From positions 1 through 64,000 of the forward strand of contig JAEOTS010000045.1 of assembly GCA_016839745.1 (NCBI GenBank): a stretch of 64,000 bases of DNA. Direction: 5' to 3'. Below, in pieces: positions 44,336 through 53,407 of the stretch (position 1 is its first letter; each line of letters begins with the position of its first letter). The notes below the pieces were generated by a model. It worked only from the letters and a program-made list of their open reading frames with translations, was not told the DNA's origin and made no database searches. This stretch comes from Promethearchaeota archaeon (GTDB taxonomy: Archaea; Asgardarchaeota; Lokiarchaeia; Sigyniarchaeales; SOKP01). The position numbers and the translations under genes are program-made.

Positions 44336-45100
44336 ATGGATTATAACCTTGCAATAATCACTCAAGATCTTTCTAAAAATTATGGTAAGACACTTGCTGT
44401 AAAAAATCTGAATCTAAATGTGCCTTATGGTATAATATATGGGCTTCTCGGACCAAACGGAGCGGGAAAGACCACAACTGTCAAAATGCTTAATTCGATG
44501 ATTGAACCTAGTAGTGGTAATGCGAAAGTAATGAATTATGATATTATCACTCAAAAGAAGGAAGTTAAATTAAATTGTGGATATTTATCTGAATCACCAA
44601 GTTTGTATGAAAAACTCACCGCAAGAGAGTTTTTAGAGTTTGTAGGTGAATTGTATTACATTACTCCAAGAATGAATGCTAAGCGAATAAGTGAATTATT
44701 AGTTTTATTTGATCTAACTAATAAAGAAAATGATTTAATTAAAACATTTTCAAGAGGAATGAAACAAAAATTAGGATTGTGTGCGGCATTAATACATGAT
44801 CCGGAGATTATCTTCTTAGATGAACCTACATCAAACCTAGATCCCGAAACAAGCAGAACAGTTAAAGACCTTGTGTTGGATTTAGTGAAAAAAGTAAATA
44901 AAACTATTTTTCTCTGTACTCACTTACTCGATACTGCTGAAGAATTATGCGATAAAATTGGAATTATTAATAATGGGACCTTACTAATAGAGGGAAAACC
45001 ACGAGATTTAATCAAATCTGTTGATGCAAAAGATTTAGAAGATGCCTATTTAAAAATGTTGAGAATATCTAGGAATAAAGATGTATTATCCTGGAGATAG
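44336..45100 (+). CDS. ABC transporter ATP-binding protein
   Basis: GPNGAGKTT, FSRGMKQ, FLDEPT, THLL. Confidence 0.95.
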   Translation: MDYNLAIITQDLSKNYGKTLAVKNLNLNVPYGIIYGLLGPNGAGKTTTVKMLNSMIEPSSGNAKVMNYDIITQKKEVKLNCGYLSESPSLYEKLTAREFLEFVGELYYITPRMNAKRISELLVLFDLTNKENDLIKTFSRGMKQKLGLCAALIHDPEIIFLDEPTSNLDPETSRTVKDLVLDLVKKVNKTIFLCTHLLDTAEELCDKIGIINNGTLLIEGKPRDLIKSVDAKDLEDAYLKMLRISRNKDVLSWR

Positions 45101-45266: not shown

Positions 45267-45533
45267 TTACGAACTAAGTAATTGAAATAGTATCGTAGCA
45301 TGAGGGATATAGAATTGGTCTTTAACTTTAATTACGACAGTATGAAAGTATTCAGCTAAACCTAAAAAACCCCTTATAACAGATTCGTCCTCTTCGAACT
45401 TAAATACTACTCTAGCTATAGCTGCGCCAGTACTAAAGTTGGCTTTTTCATACACCCTTTCATCGATTAAAGGAATTTTCAATTCGTTTACAATTTCATA
45501 CACACGCTTAATGAAGAGTTCTCTCTTTGGAAT
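45267..45533 (-). CDS. Hypothetical protein, 88 aa, probable ATT start (track start GTG 45503)
   Basis: AGGTG (45545-45541), 7-nt spacer, then ATT CCA AAG AGA GAA in frame with YEIVNELKIPLIDERVYEK. Confidence 0.65.
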   Translation of the reverse strand: MPKRELFIKRVYEIVNELKIPLIDERVYEKANFSTGAAIARVVFKFEEDESVIRGFLGLAEYFHTVVIKVKDQFYIPHATILFQLLSS

Positions 45534-45807: not shown

Positions 45808-46503
45808 TTGGTTTCGAAAGAATATAAGAAGATAGAGAGAGTCGTAAATTTTATGAAAAAAGGGTTAACATCCCTATCTGACGATTTAGAAGAAACTGTT
45901 AAAGGGATTAATGATTTTATAAAATCATTGGGTAAGGCATTGAAGGATTTGAAAGATGTCTCTATTGAACCAGAATTAAAAACTGTAAGCACATCCTCTA
46001 AAAAAGTCGTTGGTACCTCAACGGGACAAGCAAAAACTGCTGCTGCCAGTACGTTATTTAATTTACTGAGCGGTAGTCCCGGAGCAGTACAACAAGCGCC
46101 ACCAACTGCTACCGCGAGTACTTCACCTACGGTTGGGAGCCCTCCTAAATCACCTAGTGTTGGTCCTCCAAAAAGACCTGCAAGTGGGGTGCCTCCTAAA
46201 GCCCCAATAACTGGCGTAGCCCCTAAACGCTCTAATTTACCACCAGCACCAAAATTACCTCCCACTGCTGGAAGTGGTCCCCCCCAAGCACCAAATAAGG
46301 GAATAGTTCAAACTCCATCATTTGCCAAAAGACCTGCGGCTCCTGCAACAGGCGTTCCTGCAAGACCACCTGGCGCACCTACAGCACCTCCAGCGGTATC
46401 GGCTCCAGCAACGGCACCTCAAGCCGGCGGTGGATTAGGTTCTTTACGCGACGAGATGTTAGAAGAATTAAACCGCTTAAAGAAAATAATGAGAGGAGAT
46501 TAA
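45808..46503 (+). CDS. Coiled-coil + proline-rich protein with C-terminal amphipathic helix/LKKI (WH2-like) motif
   Basis: N-terminal heptad helix, long Pro/Ala/Thr/Ser linker, C-terminus GGGLGSLRDEMLEELNRLKKIMRGD. Confidence 0.75.
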   Translation: MVSKEYKKIERVVNFMKKGLTSLSDDLEETVKGINDFIKSLGKALKDLKDVSIEPELKTVSTSSKKVVGTSTGQAKTAAASTLFNLLSGSPGAVQQAPPTATASTSPTVGSPPKSPSVGPPKRPASGVPPKAPITGVAPKRSNLPPAPKLPPTAGSGPPQAPNKGIVQTPSFAKRPAAPATGVPARPPGAPTAPPAVSAPATAPQAGGGLGSLRDEMLEELNRLKKIMRGD

Positions 46504-46609
46504 GAAACAGACTTTACTACTTTTTGTTAGTCTTTTATATTAGGAATTTCTTAATTTTTACTTTCTCATTCAACAACTTTTTATTATAAATATCAGATAT
46601 TTAATATAG

Positions 46610-47356
46610 ATGGAGAATAACAATTCTATTATTAGCGATAACGGAATTCCTGTTGTAGTTCCTAAACGTATGTTAGTCTTTGCTGGTCACCCAGATGATG
46701 AAATTATATCATGTGGTGGAACGATACTTAAATATCAAGCTTTGGGATCTGAAGTATTCGTAGTTGTAGCAACAAGCGGATTAGGTGGATACGCAAAAAG
46801 CGAACAGAAAACCGAGATTGAAAAGCAAAGAAAGCAAGAACTTGAATTAATTCAGAAATCTTTGAAATGTAAAATCATCGAATTAGAGTATGTTGATTTA
46901 GAAGTCAATAGCGAACATATTTCAGAAATAACCAATTTAATAAGAGAGATTAGACCTCATGTTATTCTAATTCCTCATTATTCAGATTTCCACCGTGTTC
47001 ATAGGAATTTATCTTTAATTACAAAAGAAGCAATCTACCATTGTTCCACGGGTAAAGCATATGGAGGATATAAAAGAAATTGGACTCCATTAGGAGTTTA
47101 TTACTACGAATCCCCTTCTTGCAAGTTCCAATATGTAGAAGGTTCTGTTTTTATAATAGTAGATATTGAAAAATACTGGCGCGAGAAAAAAGAAATCTTC
47201 AATATTGTTTATCTTTCTCAGAAGGAGGTTTTAGAAAGAGTGCTAGAATGGGCTGAGGACACAGCAACTTTAAGAGGTAACGAAATTAATTCAACTTATG
47301 GGGAAGCTTTTATCCCCGAGACTACATATACTCCGTTGAAAATTTTATTATTATAG
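46610..47356 (+). CDS. PIG-L/LmbE family deacetylase
   Basis: GHPDDEIISCGGT, RKQE, IREIRPHVILIPH, HRVH, EAF. Confidence 0.88.
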   Translation: MENNNSIISDNGIPVVVPKRMLVFAGHPDDEIISCGGTILKYQALGSEVFVVVATSGLGGYAKSEQKTEIEKQRKQELELIQKSLKCKIIELEYVDLEVNSEHISEITNLIREIRPHVILIPHYSDFHRVHRNLSLITKEAIYHCSTGKAYGGYKRNWTPLGVYYYESPSCKFQYVEGSVFIIVDIEKYWREKKEIFNIVYLSQKEVLERVLEWAEDTATLRGNEINSTYGEAFIPETTYTPLKILLL

Positions 47357-47398
47357 ATTCGAAATAACTAATACCAAACATAAAAAAATAAGGAAATT

Positions 47399-48514
47399 AT
47401 GGGTAATCTTACTGTTGTTTTAGATATTGGGCAGTTTTCAGCAAAAGCAGGATTTGCGGGAGAAGATATGCCGTCTCAAGTTTTCTTCACGATTGTAGGA
47501 ACCCCAAAATATAGACAAATTGATTACGAGTATTCAGGTATTAGAAAAGACGATTTTTATGTAGGAGATGAAATTCAATCAATAGGGTTATATAAGGTTT
47601 TTTACCCAATAAATAAAGGAATAATCAAGGACTGGCTTTCTTTTGAAAAAATAATTGATTACATTTTTTACAATTTAAGAGTAGATCCGAGCTTAGTTAA
47701 CATATTGTTTGCGGTTCATCCTTTATTTCCTTACAGCGATTTAAAGAAATTATTTGAATTATTCTTAGAAAAATATCAATGTAATGCGTTTTATCCTGTC
47801 TTAGATTCCATGCTTACTTTGTACGCAGGAGGTTTTCAAACAGGTTTAGTTGTAGAGATCGGAGATAGTCTTACAAGAATAACTCCTATCTATCAAGGAT
47901 ACAAACTAGATCACGCAATTAAACATGTTGATATTGGTGGAAGAACTTTAACGAGGTTCATGGAAAAAATATTAGGTGAAAAAGGATATTCGTCAGATTC
48001 TTCAATTAGGAGGGAACTTGTAAGAGCCTTAAAAGAAAAAGCGTGTTTTGTATCTCTTGATTATAAAGAGGATTTGAAGAGAGTTGAGCAATACGAAAAG
48101 GAATATTCTTTACCGGACGGCTCAACAATTTTTTTAGCTAGAGAAAGGTTCGAAGTACCAGAATTATTGTTCAATCCATCATTGGAATTAGAGGAGATTT
48201 CTCTCCCAGAAGCAATAATGGATGTTATTGAGATGTGCGACTTAGATGTTCGTCCAGACTTATTAAACAACATTTTTTTATCGGGAGGTTCTTCTATGTT
48301 TCCCAATATCAAATCCCGAATTTATCAAGAATTAGAAATTGAATTAGCTCGCCGAAATAAAAAAAATCAAGTCATTAAAATAATAGCTCCCAGGGAGCGC
48401 ATTTTCTCTGTTTGGGTTGGAGGATCGATTTTGGCAATGATCCCTGAATTCGAGCAGAATTGGATAACCAGAGCGAAATATTACAATGAAGGTATCCCTG
48501 ACGATCTTCTATGA
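47399..48514 (+). CDS. Actin-related protein (divergent Asgard actin homologue)
   Basis: DIGQFSAKAGFAGED, YVGDE, YPINKGII, GGRTLT, LKEKACFV, YSLPDG, ERFEVPELLFNP, LSGGSSMF, SVWVGGSILA. Confidence 0.95.
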   Translation: MGNLTVVLDIGQFSAKAGFAGEDMPSQVFFTIVGTPKYRQIDYEYSGIRKDDFYVGDEIQSIGLYKVFYPINKGIIKDWLSFEKIIDYIFYNLRVDPSLVNILFAVHPLFPYSDLKKLFELFLEKYQCNAFYPVLDSMLTLYAGGFQTGLVVEIGDSLTRITPIYQGYKLDHAIKHVDIGGRTLTRFMEKILGEKGYSSDSSIRRELVRALKEKACFVSLDYKEDLKRVEQYEKEYSLPDGSTIFLARERFEVPELLFNPSLELEEISLPEAIMDVIEMCDLDVRPDLLNNIFLSGGSSMFPNIKSRIYQELEIELARRNKKNQVIKIIAPRERIFSVWVGGSILAMIPEFEQNWITRAKYYNEGIPDDLL

Positions 48515-48646: not shown

Positions 48647-49012
48647 ATGGAAGGTCCTCAAAATACGAGTTTCGAACAAACTAAAATTCTTAAAAGGTAC
48701 TATAAGCCAGATTACTCTCAATTATTTAACAAATTAAAGAACATAAAAACTCCCGTGAAAAACGAAATTTTAATTTCCTTACTTGACGGAAATTGGCACA
48801 CAGAGTTAGACTTAATTAGAGTAGCTAAACAAAAAATGAAATATATGGGTGCTGTAACCTTAGGGACTATGATTCTTTCTTTAAATCATCACTTAAAAAA
48901 CGATTATGTTGAAAGGAAAGTGATAAACGGAAAGCTGTCTTACAGAATATCAGATAACTACGTAGGTCTTACTCGAGCTGCATATAACAAATATAGTTTT
49001 AAAATGGACTAA
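48647..49012 (+). CDS. Putative winged-helix DNA-binding protein
   Basis: EILISLLDG...helix...YVERKVINGKLSYRIS beta-wing pattern. Confidence 0.55.
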   Translation: MEGPQNTSFEQTKILKRYYKPDYSQLFNKLKNIKTPVKNEILISLLDGNWHTELDLIRVAKQKMKYMGAVTLGTMILSLNHHLKNDYVERKVINGKLSYRISDNYVGLTRAAYNKYSFKMD

Positions 49013-49034: not shown

Positions 49035-51221
49035 TTAATTTCTTTTTACGCACTGATCTTTAGAAATTTGATAACCTGAGCAACTAGAACAAAAACCATT
49101 AGTTTCTTCTTTATACCTATTACTCCAACATTTTGGACAAATATAATATACAGTAGTTTTATTTTTGTTCCTTTTTAGGATCTTAAACACATTAAAACCG
49201 CATTTTAAACAAGTCGTAGATTTTAATATGGTAATCCTACCAGTTTTTGGAACTGGGAGGTAAGTCTTACAACTTCTATCAGAACACGCAAGGAATCTTT
49301 TTTTTTGTGAAGTAGTGACTAAGCTCATGGGATTAGTATTGCAAGTTGGGCATTTAGAAGTAGTTTGAGGAAAACTTTTCTGTGTAGAATTTTGTTGCAT
49401 TGCCGTTTTTAAATTATCTTTCACGCTATCAAATTGGAAAGTTATCGCTTTTTTATTATTACGGAATTTATCAAATAAATCGAGGAAGAGCTTTTTTACT
49501 GTAGTAACCACACTATCCATTGTTTTCCTATTTTCTTTGACGTCTTCAAGTAACTTTTCAACAAATCTGGTAAAATCAGGCTTTAAAAATGGTAACCACA
49601 CTTTAATTAATTCACTAATAAGAAATTTACCCCATTCAGTTATTTTAAAGCGATTTTTAGCAATTCTATAGATTAATTTACGATCTACTAGAATCTTAAT
49701 TATAGTGGGACGAGTGGATTTTGTTCCTAGGTGTTCTTTCTCCATTAGTTTTAATAAAGTTGTATCTGTGTAATGGGGAAGTGGTTGAGTTTCTTTTTCG
49801 TTCAAAAAGATTTTATTAACCGGAAGTTCCTTAACTTGAATCTCGAATAATGGTTGATAAACTTTTTTCAAAAATGGAGCGATTTCGTAAAATCCACTTT
49901 GAGTTAACGCCACGATTTGAGATGCAAATACTTCATCTTTGATGGATAACTTTAATTTGGTCCTCAATTCTTTTGCTTGTTTACCAAAAAGGGCTAAATA
50001 ATGGCGAGCTAAAATATCGTATACTTTTTTCTCGAGATCGTTCTCAAATTTAGAGCTTTTTTGCTCTAGGCTTACCAATGGAGTAATGGGTGGATGATCT
50101 CCAGCATCAACTTTTCCGGTTGTTGGATTCATTCTATTTTCCTTAAATAGATTTACTGTGTAAGATCCATAGTTAATGTGTGGTTTGAAATTTTTAAGAT
50201 ATTGAATATGATCAAAAGTGGAGTTGTATTTATCGCTATCAGTTCTTGGGTAAGAGATAATCTGATTTAAGTAGAGTGAATTCATAGTATTCATAGCCGC
50301 TCTTGCGCTAATTCTTAAAGTCTTTGTTAACAATACCAGAGCTTTAGAAGTGTTTAAAGGTGTTGGCGGATTAATTACTACGGATTCTTTTGTATTGTTT
50401 AAAATTATAGCGATTTTCTCGTCTTTAATTTTTTGGAAAATAGCTTTTGCTTCAGATTCTTTCTCTTTAACGAAAGGATTCTTAGTATGCACAGCTTTAA
50501 TATTATAATTTTTATGCTCTAAATTGGCTGTAATTGTCCAGTATGGTTCAGGAATAAATTGTTCGATCTCAAGGTCTCTTAAATATATTAAATAGAGTAG
50601 AGAAGTCTGTACTCTTCCTATCGATACAAATTTATTATTAATCTCGTTCAATATCGGTTTGAATGTATTAGTGACTTCTCTAGTGCTTGAAAAACCGATG
50701 AAAGCGTCAATAATCGCTCTTGCTTCACCTGATTCTCCCCAACTCCATTTAGGAGGAATTAGATTTCTATATTTTGAAACGATCTCCTTTTTCTCTAATG
50801 AACTTAACCATAGTTGGTTAACTTTAATACTTCTATTAGCCTTAATAATAAAGGGTAGCGCGTCAAAAAGACCTATATTACACCCTTCAATGTCTGCATC
50901 AGTAGCAATCACACATTCATCGCACAATTTAGAGAATTCGATTAAAGTTTTAATATATGGACTGGCATAACTTATAGCCACTTTATCAATTGATTTTGGA
51001 TTTGTAATGATTTCTCTCGGATCTGATTTAGCCCAGCTTTTATATTGAGCGGTATTTCTATATTCTAAAATATGTCCTCGAAGAGGAACAACATAGATAT
51101 TCTTAGAAGGTATATGATAGACATGTAGGAACTTAGTTTTGCTTATAATGGTAACAGGTCCTAACGCTTCTGCGATTCCTTTAGCAGCTTTATTTTTTTC
51201 AGAAATTATTAAAATCGGCAT
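49035..51221 (-). CDS. topA: Type IA DNA topoisomerase (archaeal TopA/Top3) with C-terminal Zn ribbons
   Basis: ISEKNKAA, RGH, ATDADIEG, SIGRVQT, ISYPRTDS, HPPITP, LGTKSTR, CxxC ribbons. Confidence 0.93.
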   Translation of the reverse strand: MPILIISEKNKAAKGIAEALGPVTIISKTKFLHVYHIPSKNIYVVPLRGHILEYRNTAQYKSWAKSDPREIITNPKSIDKVAISYASPYIKTLIEFSKLCDECVIATDADIEGCNIGLFDALPFIIKANRSIKVNQLWLSSLEKKEIVSKYRNLIPPKWSWGESGEARAIIDAFIGFSSTREVTNTFKPILNEINNKFVSIGRVQTSLLYLIYLRDLEIEQFIPEPYWTITANLEHKNYNIKAVHTKNPFVKEKESEAKAIFQKIKDEKIAIILNNTKESVVINPPTPLNTSKALVLLTKTLRISARAAMNTMNSLYLNQIISYPRTDSDKYNSTFDHIQYLKNFKPHINYGSYTVNLFKENRMNPTTGKVDAGDHPPITPLVSLEQKSSKFENDLEKKVYDILARHYLALFGKQAKELRTKLKLSIKDEVFASQIVALTQSGFYEIAPFLKKVYQPLFEIQVKELPVNKIFLNEKETQPLPHYTDTTLLKLMEKEHLGTKSTRPTIIKILVDRKLIYRIAKNRFKITEWGKFLISELIKVWLPFLKPDFTRFVEKLLEDVKENRKTMDSVVTTVKKLFLDLFDKFRNNKKAITFQFDSVKDNLKTAMQQNSTQKSFPQTTSKCPTCNTNPMSLVTTSQKKRFLACSDRSCKTYLPVPKTGRITILKSTTCLKCGFNVFKILKRNKNKTTVYYICPKCWSNRYKEETNGFCSSCSGYQISKDQCVKRN

Positions 51222-51406: not shown

Positions 51407-53407
51407 TTACTGTTTTGGGAGAACAAAGCTAAATTCAGTACCCAAATCTCTTCCTTTTGACTCAGCCCAAATTTTTCCTCCATGTGCTTCTATAAAACCT
51501 TTAGCGATGTACAACCCTAATCCACTTCCTTTATCTAGAGTAGAGTATCCTTCAATACCTTGTTCTATTGTAACGAACTTACCGAATAACTTTTGCATTT
51601 CTTCAGGTGTTAAACCTTTTCCGTTATCCTTTATACTAAAAACGAAAGTCTCATCATCTTCAATATTAGAGATAATAACTTTTCCATCCTTCGGAGTAAA
51701 TTTGATAGCATTTGATAATAGATTCAAAAAAACTTGTGAAATTCTGAACTGATCTACTTTTAACTTAAGATTTTCTGAGATTTCAAGGTTAATTGTTAAA
51801 TTTTTTTGTCCAATTTGAAACTCTAAATCAGAAATACAGTTACTTATTATATCGTGAATGTTTTCTTCTCTTTTCACTAACTCTATTTTTTTTGCCTCGA
51901 TTTTCATTACATCTAACAATCGATTAATATACCCTTCTAAGCGTTTGACATTATTCAAAACTCGATTTAAATCCTCCTTAACTTCCTCTTTCAATCCCTT
52001 TTCTCTTAATAGTATCAAATCAATGTATCCTCCAACAGAGATTAATGGAGTTTTCAAATCATGAGCAGCAATACTAATAAAATCAGTTTTCAATCGATCT
52101 AATTCTTTCAATTCGATATTTTGTTCTCTTAATATTCGCTCCGATTCTTTTAATTTTTCCTCAGCGAGTTTCTTTTCTGTTATGTCCTGAATAATAACTT
52201 GAACCATTTGTTTTCCACTTATATTGATGCTTGACAGTTCAGATTCAACCCAGATCAATTCTTTTTCTTTATTATATATTTCGGTAATTTGAGGTTTCAT
52301 AATTGGATTATCTGGTTCTCCTTTAGACATTAAATCCCGAAGTATTCTTAACCCGGGTTTTGTTTCATTGGGAAAAATTCTTGTGAGAGTTAAATAATTT
52401 TTATCGAGAATATCTTCTTTTTTGTATCCAAACAGTTCTGTTGTTTTTGTATTCATATCAACGATTTTACCATTATAATCCATAAGTACGATGCTAAATG
52501 GTGAATTCTCAAATAAATGTCGATATTTTTCTTCAGATTCTTTTAATTTTTGCTCAGCAATTTTACGCTCAGTAATATCTATTACAGAACCGATTGCTTC
52601 AATAGGATTTCCTTCGTTATCCTTTAATAATTCAACTTCATCACGCATCCAGTGATAAGTCCCATTCTTTAATTTGAAGCGGTAATCATATATTGCTACA
52701 AATTCTTTTTCAATTAAGTCTGAAAGTTCTGTTAAAACATGTTCTTTATCATCAGGATGGATTTTATTGAGCCAAAATTCTGAGTTATTCATAAAATCTT
52801 CCGAGGAATAACCCCATTTCTTTAGGACATTATCACTTATAAAAGTAGCTCCATAATCTCCTACAACTTTCGATGTATAAATTATTGCCGGATTAGAAGA
52901 AACTAGAAATTTGAATCTCTCTTCGGATTCTTTTAACTTTTGCTCTGCATGTTTTCGTTCTGTGATGTCTGTGACTGAGATTAAATCAGCCGGTCTACCC
53001 ATGTAATCTACGGATCTAGAATAAATATCTATCCATCTAATTTCTCCCGACTTATTAATGATTCGAAACTGATAGTTAGTTAAATAATCCTTTAAACCTC
53101 TTTGTTTTTTCTCGAGCTGTTCTAAAACCCAAATTCTATCTTTCGGATGGATCAAATCAAAAATTTTTATTGGGCTCAAATGCATTGTTTCCTCCACAGT
53201 ATATCCTGTTAGAACTGTAGATTGCTTGTTAACATACTTTATTTTATTGTCTTGGATAATTGCGATTCCCATTAGAGAGTTATCTGCAATGGTTTTGAAT
53301 TTTTCTTCTAAATCTTTAAGTTCTTTAGTGCCTTCCTCTAACTTTTTTTCCAATTCTTTATTTAATACCATAAGTTCTTCTTTAGACACTGATATATTCA
53401 CCTTCAT
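51407..53407 (-). CDS. Cytoplasmic multi-PAS sensor histidine kinase
   Basis: Three PAS/PAC units ending DITERK; H-box AAHDLKTPL; NLLSNAIKFT, DNGKG, GSGLGL. True start may be GTG at 53389 behind AGGTGA. Confidence 0.93.
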   Translation of the reverse strand: MKVNISVSKEELMVLNKELEKKLEEGTKELKDLEEKFKTIADNSLMGIAIIQDNKIKYVNKQSTVLTGYTVEETMHLSPIKIFDLIHPKDRIWVLEQLEKKQRGLKDYLTNYQFRIINKSGEIRWIDIYSRSVDYMGRPADLISVTDITERKHAEQKLKESEERFKFLVSSNPAIIYTSKVVGDYGATFISDNVLKKWGYSSEDFMNNSEFWLNKIHPDDKEHVLTELSDLIEKEFVAIYDYRFKLKNGTYHWMRDEVELLKDNEGNPIEAIGSVIDITERKIAEQKLKESEEKYRHLFENSPFSIVLMDYNGKIVDMNTKTTELFGYKKEDILDKNYLTLTRIFPNETKPGLRILRDLMSKGEPDNPIMKPQITEIYNKEKELIWVESELSSINISGKQMVQVIIQDITEKKLAEEKLKESERILREQNIELKELDRLKTDFISIAAHDLKTPLISVGGYIDLILLREKGLKEEVKEDLNRVLNNVKRLEGYINRLLDVMKIEAKKIELVKREENIHDIISNCISDLEFQIGQKNLTINLEISENLKLKVDQFRISQVFLNLLSNAIKFTPKDGKVIISNIEDDETFVFSIKDNGKGLTPEEMQKLFGKFVTIEQGIEGYSTLDKGSGLGLYIAKGFIEAHGGKIWAESKGRDLGTEFSFVLPKQ

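Follow-up and report, generated by a model that had tools for sequence, protein, structure and literature searches.

The window analyzed in this work is a stretch of 64,000 nucleotides (64 kb; G+C content of about 31%) from contig JAEOTS010000045.1 of a Promethearchaeota archaeon of the class Lokiarchaeia (assembly GCA_016839745.1), whose genome is 89% complete. It contains a gene for a protein of 231 amino acids (aa), hereafter the tether gene and the tether protein, which is preceded by a divergent gene for an 88-aa protein and followed on the same strand by genes for a PIG-L/LmbE deacetylase and for an actin-family protein (Table 1). The tether protein is composed of N-terminal helices, a disordered Pro-rich arm and an amphipathic C-terminal helix, and this terminal helix is conserved far beyond chance. 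Throughout the text f1, f2 and so on designate Asgard families and g designates genera; the genome of the window belongs to f1, and f2 is its sister family.

Table 1. Genes and protein features at the tether locus, with their positions in the window (pLDDT, predicted local distance difference test; AF2, AlphaFold2; ORF, open reading frame).
Feature	Position	Strand	Remarks
ABC ATPase gene	44336..45100	+	
88-aa alpha/beta protein gene	45267..45533	-	275 bp upstream of the tether gene, divergent
Tether gene, 231 aa	45808..46503	+	ORF with TTG start; Shine-Dalgarno-like GAGG about 10 nt upstream
N-terminal long helix, residues 4-50	45817..45957	+	AF2 pLDDT >90; conserved among soluble-type homologues
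Second short helix, residues 72-87	46021..46068	+	AF2 helix
Disordered Pro-rich arm, residues 88-208	46069..46431	+	AF2 pLDDT <50 across most of the arm
LPPAPKLPP motif, residues 144-152	46237..46263	+	P145, P148 and P151 invariant
TPSFAKRP motif, residues 169-176	46312..46335	+	P170 invariant, P176 almost so
C-terminal helix, residues 209-229	46432..46494	+	AF2 pLDDT about 89; core L213-M228 at 46444-46491
PIG-L/LmbE deacetylase gene	46610..47356	+	Pfam PF02585, 5.9e-24
Actin-family gene, 371 aa	47399..48514	+	Pfam Actin, 2.9e-90
121-aa gene	48647..49012	+	No Pfam family
728-aa ORF	49035..51221	-	Topoisomerase-like by eye
666-aa ORF	51407..53407	-	Histidine-kinase-like by eye

The tether protein and its terminal helix

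The TTG start of the tether gene is supported by its homologues, whose starts align with it; in one of them (L020) the start codon is ATG. The first-pass annotation of this DNA, made without database searches, had described an N-terminal coiled coil, a long Pro-rich linker and a terminal helix in the 231-aa product. A long N-terminal helix, a Pro-rich arm and a terminal helix are indeed present, both in the sequence and in an AlphaFold2 model built from a 16-sequence alignment, and the PPK and LPPAPKLPP motifs and the terminal segment GGGLGSLRDEMLEELNRLKKIMRGD were found as it had given them. In the soluble form of the protein (see below) the long N-terminal helix would act as an anchor or in oligomerisation; no transmembrane (TM)-like segment was found in the window protein (maximum Kyte-Doolittle value of 0.65). 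In the second helix (AKTAAASTLFNLLSG) the residues A79, A80, L83 and L87 are invariant among the 16 sequences. The arm that follows comprises about 120 residues, 29% of them Pro, with 11 Lys and Arg residues and without a single Asp or Glu. Its repeats and its length differ between relatives; the pattern LP[PAS][AP]PK[LM]PP is kept across families f1-f3, and TPSFAKRP is retained in f1 and in part of f2.

Conservation of the C-terminal residues had been proposed as a check of the first-pass annotation, and it was borne out: L213, R214, E216, M217, L218, E220, L221, R223, L224, K225, I227 and M228 are invariant in the 16 sequences, which come from four Lokiarchaeial families. In at least 14 families the helix follows the consensus phi-x-x-L-[RK]-x-E-M-[LM]-x-E-[LIM]-x-[RK]-[LI]-[KR]-x-phi-phi. 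Homologues of the tether gene were detected in 37 of the 41 genomes of the order and, beyond it, phylum-wide. A profile of the full-length protein revealed relatives in 137 of 301 Asgard genomes, and a profile restricted to the helix (26 positions) had matches in 202 of the 221 Asgard genomes that are at least 85% complete, representing 22 of the 26 sampled families. The window gene itself matched this tail-only profile with 50.4 bits (E 9.7e-13), and its product corresponds to the definition of the family, that is, the consensus terminal helix behind a Pro-rich disordered arm.

No described family could be assigned to the tether protein in Pfam (E<=0.1), the PDB or the ESM Atlas; the only match in the Atlas was the protein's own cluster, composed of hypothetical Promethearchaeota proteins, and in public databases its relatives are labeled "hypothetical protein" of Lokiarchaeota or Promethearchaeota. 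A Pfam scan of the tether protein, its TM-type relatives, the isolated tails and the 88-aa protein likewise gave nothing above threshold. A CCDC53/WASH match of an Odin homologue (E 0.013) lay under the cut-off, is probably compositional and was rejected. When the tail profile was compared with the PDB, its matches were limited to fragments of generic coiled coils (GCN4, M protein, IL-4; E>=0.34) and included no WH2 peptide.

It should be mentioned that the second-best match of the helix profile in the window genome (9.7 bits, E 0.38) is located in a 124-aa protein that by eye looks like an MscL-type channel (G000 C43:11014-11385, minus strand; L130). Its N-terminal extension reads EDEMLEELKKIRELL and continues with TPVPPVPPEKP; the extension may be a further carrier of a related helix, or the match may be due to chance.

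Soluble and membrane-anchored forms and the 88-aa neighbour

Two architectures were distinguished among the tether homologues, each family being assigned from one or two inspected loci. The soluble form (200-270 aa) consists of N-terminal helices, the Pro arm and the end helix, has no TM-like segment, and was found in f1, f2, f3, f4, f6, f7 (genomes of 1.3-1.4 Mb), f12, f16 and f25. The membrane-anchored form (250-570 aa), composed of at least one TM segment, a coiled coil, the Pro arm and the end helix, was found in f9, f11, f17, f19, f20, f26 and f31. Genes resembling by eye rpiA, a PIN/KH-like ATPase and a tRNA-splicing endonuclease recur near the TM-type homologues; they provide no functional clue.

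Where its homologues have their start codon, the gene for the 88-aa protein contains no ATG, GTG or TTG. It apparently starts with ATT, 7 nt past AGGTG, and the residues encoded from this codon, IPKRELFIKRVYEIV..., align with MPK... of its relatives. The AF2 model of the product is an alpha/beta structure with a pLDDT of 90. The protein belongs to no Pfam family; the best Foldseek match had an E-value of 0.18 and the best VIA-align match a Z-score of 4.5, and none of the candidates (clamp-loader delta, RFC and histidine-kinase CA domains) gave a convincing fold assignment.

The 88-aa gene adjoins the soluble-type tether gene, or lies within 3 kb of it, in f1, f2 (g5), f3, f5, f6, f7, f16, f23, f25 and f33. 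In the survey of 221 genomes it was present in 60 of the 65 genomes of f1 and in all those of f2 (6/6), f7 (4/4), f16 (7/7), f23 (6/6) and f12 (3/3), and was also present in f25, f5 and f33. Just two of the 58 genomes of f11 contained it, and it was found in none of the genomes of f9 (0/21), f26 (0/15), f31 (0/5), f18 (0/5), f17 (0/3), f20 (0/2) and f19 (0/2). Among the families inspected, the 88-aa gene and the TM-anchored forms are complementary at the family level. We infer that the 88-aa protein works together with the N-terminal helices of the soluble form and replaces the membrane anchor.

Reuse of the helix and its possible partners

The helix behaves as a portable module that is reused in several protein contexts, since the tail-only profile also matches other f1 proteins, namely Sec23/24 homologues, Zn-ribbon proteins and DUF4140-like proteins. 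The Sec23/24 homologues (557-583 aa) come from three genera [L114:866-2542:- (G080); L115:1554-3302:+ (G267); L125:259-1929:+ (G332)] and match Pfam Sec23_BS (9e-9 and 4e-9) and Sec23_trunk (4e-8 and 1e-8) over the cut-off. They comprise a Zn-finger, a trunk, a beta-sandwich and a helical tail; a gelsolin-like domain was not detected. A copy of the helix (LSGLKSEMLNELNRLKSI, LRSLRDEMLGEMNRLKSV or LRNEMLSELNHLKKI; 27.5, 21.3 and 18.3 bits) is located about 40 residues past the beta-sandwich. A phmmer search of the PDB with the Sec23/24-like protein retrieved one "conserved protein" (8s05), which aligned over the vWA part and left the motif region unaligned.

The second group of carriers comprises proteins of about 155-165 aa from many f1 genomes, including those of the same genus, in which LLRDEMLEELNHLKEII is followed by a Zn-ribbon (21.5-33.8 bits). 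In the window genome the same Zn-ribbon (C-terminal, Cys4) is fused to a Ras-family GTPase (C144:60547-61326, plus strand; L129:3548-4327; Pfam Ras 4e-16). Finally, DUF4140-like proteins of about 255 aa carry the helix motif near their C-terminus. The corresponding protein of the window genome (245 aa; C93:36089-36823, minus strand; L128:4090-4824) has a degenerate motif, GIMNELNVLRS; its gene is located about 10 kb from another divergent actin-family gene, which encodes 510 aa (C93:46103-47632). Because it is built into Sec23/24-like, Zn-ribbon and DUF4140-like proteins, the helix is best regarded as a portable interaction module and not as an accessory of the neighbouring actin.

With moderate confidence, we propose that flexible tethers or adaptors with a modular docking or co-assembly helix form an undescribed family, nearly universal among Asgard archaea, and that the tether protein represents this family in Lokiarchaeia. 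In a protein of this kind the first module would be an anchor, formed here by the 47-residue helix and the short second helix, probably with the adjacent 88-aa protein, and in other Asgard classes by a transmembrane helix and a coiled coil. The second module, the disordered Pro-rich arm, would serve as a spacer with a few conserved PxxP-type motifs. The third, the 20-residue amphipathic C-terminal helix that is almost invariant throughout the phylum, would dock onto a conserved partner or co-assemble with it, and would thereby hold the partner where the anchor sits. In CdvA of Sulfolobales, in ZipA and in the system of the FtsZ C-terminal peptide, too, an anchor is joined by a flexible linker to a short terminal peptide, which brings a cytoskeletal or remodelling protein to a surface; the likeness of the tether to these systems is general only and involves no homology. 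The complementarity of the 88-aa gene with the membrane-anchored forms, the reuse of the helix in other proteins and the quantified comparison with ESCRT-III tails given below are new to this work.

Several points weigh against this proposal. The docking of a partner by the terminal helix is suggested by its conservation and by analogy with arcadin-2, CdvA and the FtsZ C-terminal peptide. Alternatively, the helix could mediate self-association; its N-half is acidic and its C-half basic, which would suit an antiparallel pair. As to the Sec23/24-like proteins, their copy of the motif may belong structurally to the helical domain instead of being an exposed module. The soluble and TM classes were read from one or two loci per family, and related genomes are not independent of each other. 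On the side of the proposal, a sediment metatranscriptome contained short contigs, 95-99% alike, that map to the tether and 88-aa genes, and the same RNA library contained a contig 90% alike on the PIG-L gene; no contig of that library lay on the actin gene, and none bridged two genes, so that operon structure cannot be read from them. These data are a weak hint that close relatives express the tether and 88-aa genes, as the contigs derive from such relatives and not from the exact strain, and DNA contamination is possible.

The identity of the other carriers raises the question of a coat. It can be hypothesized that the helix serves for assembly in an Asgard proto-coat network whose members have it in common, among them the Sec23/24-like proteins and the Zn-ribbon proteins related to Ras-family GTPases. 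The tether, as a coiled coil or TM anchor with a Pro-rich arm, would be a TANGO1/cTAGE5- or Sec31-like component. The motif inside Sec23/24 homologues of three genera and in the small Zn-ribbon proteins, whose ribbon is joined to a Ras-family GTPase in the window genome, would fit such a network, as would the GTPase-like genes (Walker A recognized by eye) that adjoin tether homologues at two loci (L021:5763-6311, minus strand, in f2; L076:5675-6595, minus strand, in f31). However, the window genome keeps the tether gene, and no Sec23/24-like gene was detected in it at 89% completeness; the Sec23/24-like carriers were found only in f1; and the identity of the carriers says nothing about what the helix binds. 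We therefore consider a proto-coat role of this kind unlikely.

The other comparison concerns ESCRT. According to this explanation, the terminal helix would behave like an ESCRT-III tail and attach to an MIT domain, that of Vps4 or of another MIT protein. The anchor would then set the place where the tether recruits the ESCRT ATPase or regulates it. Tails resembling the MIT-interacting motif MIM1 have been described in Asgard ESCRT-III (PMC7240154; PMC8970359). The ESCRT-III tails of 11 lineages end with E-[LI]-x-x-E-[IL]-x-[KR]-L-[KR], which matches the tether core E-M-x-x-E-[LIM]-x-[RK]-[LI]-[KR] position by position, and Asgard ESCRT-III tails and the tether helix share a Glu where eukaryotic MIM1 has Arg. 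Like the MIM1 tails of the Vps2/24/46 class (PMC7240154), the tether ends with an amphipathic helix in which hydrophobic residues at i, i+4 and i+7 are followed by K/R. In contrast to ESCRT-III, it has a longer helix and no Snf7 domain (no match to Pfam PF03357), and the similarity is statistically modest. In particular, a profile of 17 ESCRT-III tails from foreign lineages ranked the two ESCRT-III proteins of the window genome first and second and the tether 19th among 3098 C-termini; this rank (6.6 bits) corresponds only to the top 0.6% of a K/E/L-rich proteome. In the reverse search ESCRT-III reached rank 45 with E = 58, which is not significant.

Other observations also speak against the binding of an MIT domain. 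The additional conserved hydrophobic residues L213, I227 and M228 of the tether helix are absent from ESCRT-III tails, and no ESCRT gene adjoins any inspected tether homologue (the two Snf7 genes of the window genome are located on C35 and C105). The MIM2 core is phi-P-x-phi-P (PMC8970359); LPPAP of the LPPAPKLPP motif fits it in the window genome, but LPPPP, LPSPP and LPAPP of the relatives do not. Moreover, genomes without a detectable helix (in f24, f13 and f30) still carry Snf7 genes. Since these genomes keep actin genes as well, co-absence does not separate an ESCRT partner from an actin partner. The resemblance of the tether helix to Asgard MIM1-like tails is thus modest and suggestive, and recruitment of the ESCRT ATPase by the tether appears doubtful to us.

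As to what the helix of the proposed tether would bind, a receptor with a three-helix bundle, for example the Vps4 MIT domain, contacted in a MIM1-like way, can be named as a tentative candidate. The same holds for a coat or trafficking hub or for homotypic assembly with other carriers of the helix. The barbed-end groove of actin, occupied in an arcadin-2- or WH2-like way, seems an improbable partner, and the rest of the probability falls to partners of some other kind. A more general idea, rather speculative in our opinion, is that the helix is a portable Asgard interaction code by which tethers, Sec23/24-like, Zn-ribbon and DUF4140-like proteins plug into one hub or co-assemble; in a narrower variant the hub would be an actin or Vps4. 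If true, this code would be a eukaryote-style network of short linear motifs that organised membrane or cytoskeletal remodelling before eukaryogenesis.

The tether family, present in about nine out of ten Asgard genomes and built like a eukaryotic disordered adaptor, offers a handle on how Asgard actin, ESCRT and coat-like proteins reach membranes. Since Sec23/24-like and GTPase-related proteins carry the helix as well, it may belong to a common interaction network instead of being a one-off accessory of actin. A synthetic version of the 20-residue helix can serve as bait in the cultivated species.

The actin paralogue and the gene neighbourhood

The first-pass annotation had pointed to an actin homologue two genes downstream of the tether gene on the same strand, and this arrangement, with the PIG-L gene in between, was confirmed. 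In total, five actin-family genes were found in the genome. Two of them are Lokiactin-grade (442 and 432 bits); the window gene, with 300 bits and 42% identity to one of these two, is therefore a divergent paralogue and not the canonical Lokiactin. Its best matches in the PDB are eukaryotic actins (about 3e-90).

Among 10 genomes of the same genus, the order tether / PIG-L / actin / 121-aa / topoisomerase-like / kinase-like is collinear in all whose flanks are long enough. Four further genera of f1 keep the order from tether to actin, although PIG-L is missing in g12 and g16, where the two genes directly adjoin. Synteny across Lokiarchaeia had been suggested as a check of a functional pair, and at this level the linkage did not hold. 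In f2 no actin gene lies within about 6 kb of the tether gene; the actin orthologues of three f2 genomes are located 44, 70 and 100 kb off and are 51-58% identical to the window actin, versus 42-43% for Lokiactin. Likewise, no actin gene was found within about 6 kb of the tether gene in f3, f4 or other Asgard classes; in f3 PIG-L alone follows the tether gene (L038:6534-7217). The linkage of tether and actin is one family deep and therefore does not exceed ordinary synteny. The PIG-L gene is a variable, loosely associated insert between the two.

A T-rich gap past the end of the tether gene, noted earlier as a possible separation of transcripts, is indeed present. Runs of T5 and T4 are found in the spacer of 106 bp, as is a TATA-like TTTATTATAAATA that precedes the ATG of PIG-L by about 20-30 nt; because of these elements the tether gene is probably transcribed on its own. 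The gap between PIG-L and the actin gene is 42 bp, with AGGA before the ATG.

The first-pass annotation had seen in the tether protein a candidate nucleation-promoting factor (NPF) or VASP-like regulator of the neighbouring actin or of Lokiactin. In this explanation the barbed-end groove of G-actin or of an actin paralogue would receive the helix, in a WH2-, arcadin-2- or ParR-like manner, and the Pro arm would feed profilin-actin. The proposed architecture stands: the tether resembles WASP/WAVE/WIP and Ena/VASP in having a helix for oligomerisation, a region rich in Pro and a short amphipathic helix with L-K-K. A partner-binding helix is also reasonable, and the same-strand adjacency of the tether gene and the actin paralogue in five genera of f1, even without the intervening PIG-L, speaks for this explanation. 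The links to WH2, profilin and actin turned out to be wrong or are unproven.

The closest archaeal parallel for groove-binding is arcadin-2 of Pyrobaculum calidifontis, a regulator of crenactin (PDB 5LY3; PMC5173319). Like the tether, it has a core that is folded or helical, an unstructured linker without conservation and, at the C-terminus, a small conserved helix. This helix plugs the groove of the actin and carries the whole interaction, crenactin being bound at 31 nM, and the gene belongs to the arcade cluster together with crenactin (PMC5173319). Since arcadin-2 acts on crenactin in this way, the tether helix may do the same with an actin. However, the two proteins have no sequence similarity, the arm of the tether is far longer and Pro-rich, its linkage to actin is limited to one family, and its helix is also found in unrelated proteins. 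The tether family is phylum-wide, and the window actin paralogue is not its constant partner.

The resemblance to WH2 did not withstand a closer comparison. WH2 consists of an amphipathic helix, a short linker and an extended LKK[TV] or LKKV segment (PMC8102491). As had been cautioned earlier, two residues (NR) separate the last Leu of the tether helix from LKK; unlike in WH2, a single continuous helix is predicted through LKKIM, with no linker between helix and LKKV. The LKK itself is not conserved. Phylum-wide, this position reads LKK, LKE, LKA, LKR, LKT, LKS or LRE, so that the second Lys is replaced by Glu, Ala, Arg, Thr or Ser, and the next residue, V or T in WH2, is always the bulky I, L, F or Y. 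The WH2 profile of Pfam (PF02205) matched neither the 231-aa protein (E<=0.1) nor 21 isolated tails (E<=10), a result to be read with the reservation that HMMER filters may hide very weak matches of short models.

The Pro-rich arm gives no better support for an Ena/VASP- or NPF-type protein, for which we looked for Pro runs of at least five residues or GPPPPP together with an EVH1/WH1 or VCA module. Pro runs in the window protein, as had also been cautioned, never exceed two residues, and no EVH1, WH1 or other Pfam domain was found in it; coupling to actin, also expected of an NPF, is seen only as the adjacency within f1. Binding of profilin by the arm had been part of the proposal. Profilins of Loki and Odin are reported not to bind the poly-Pro of VASP, and those of Heimdall and Thor bind it weakly (PMC8410842). 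In the text of a co-immunoprecipitation study of Lokiactin in L. ossiferum (PMC13716822), a profilin, gelsolins, an ARF GTPase and BAR proteins are mentioned; a tether-like protein is not. The T-runs and the TATA-like box that separate the tether gene from the PIG-L and actin genes also argue against a common unit. We conclude that activation of the neighbouring actin of a WH2/VASP type is weakly supported, as none of the results points specifically to actin binding, and that an actin-groove-binding NPF-like factor is a quite improbable identity for the tether; gene adjacency in one family together with "LKK" is insufficient to recognize an archaeal NPF.

Another companion of the actin paralogue is the 121-aa gene located directly downstream of it, which accompanies it in all genera of f1 examined and is duplicated in L089.

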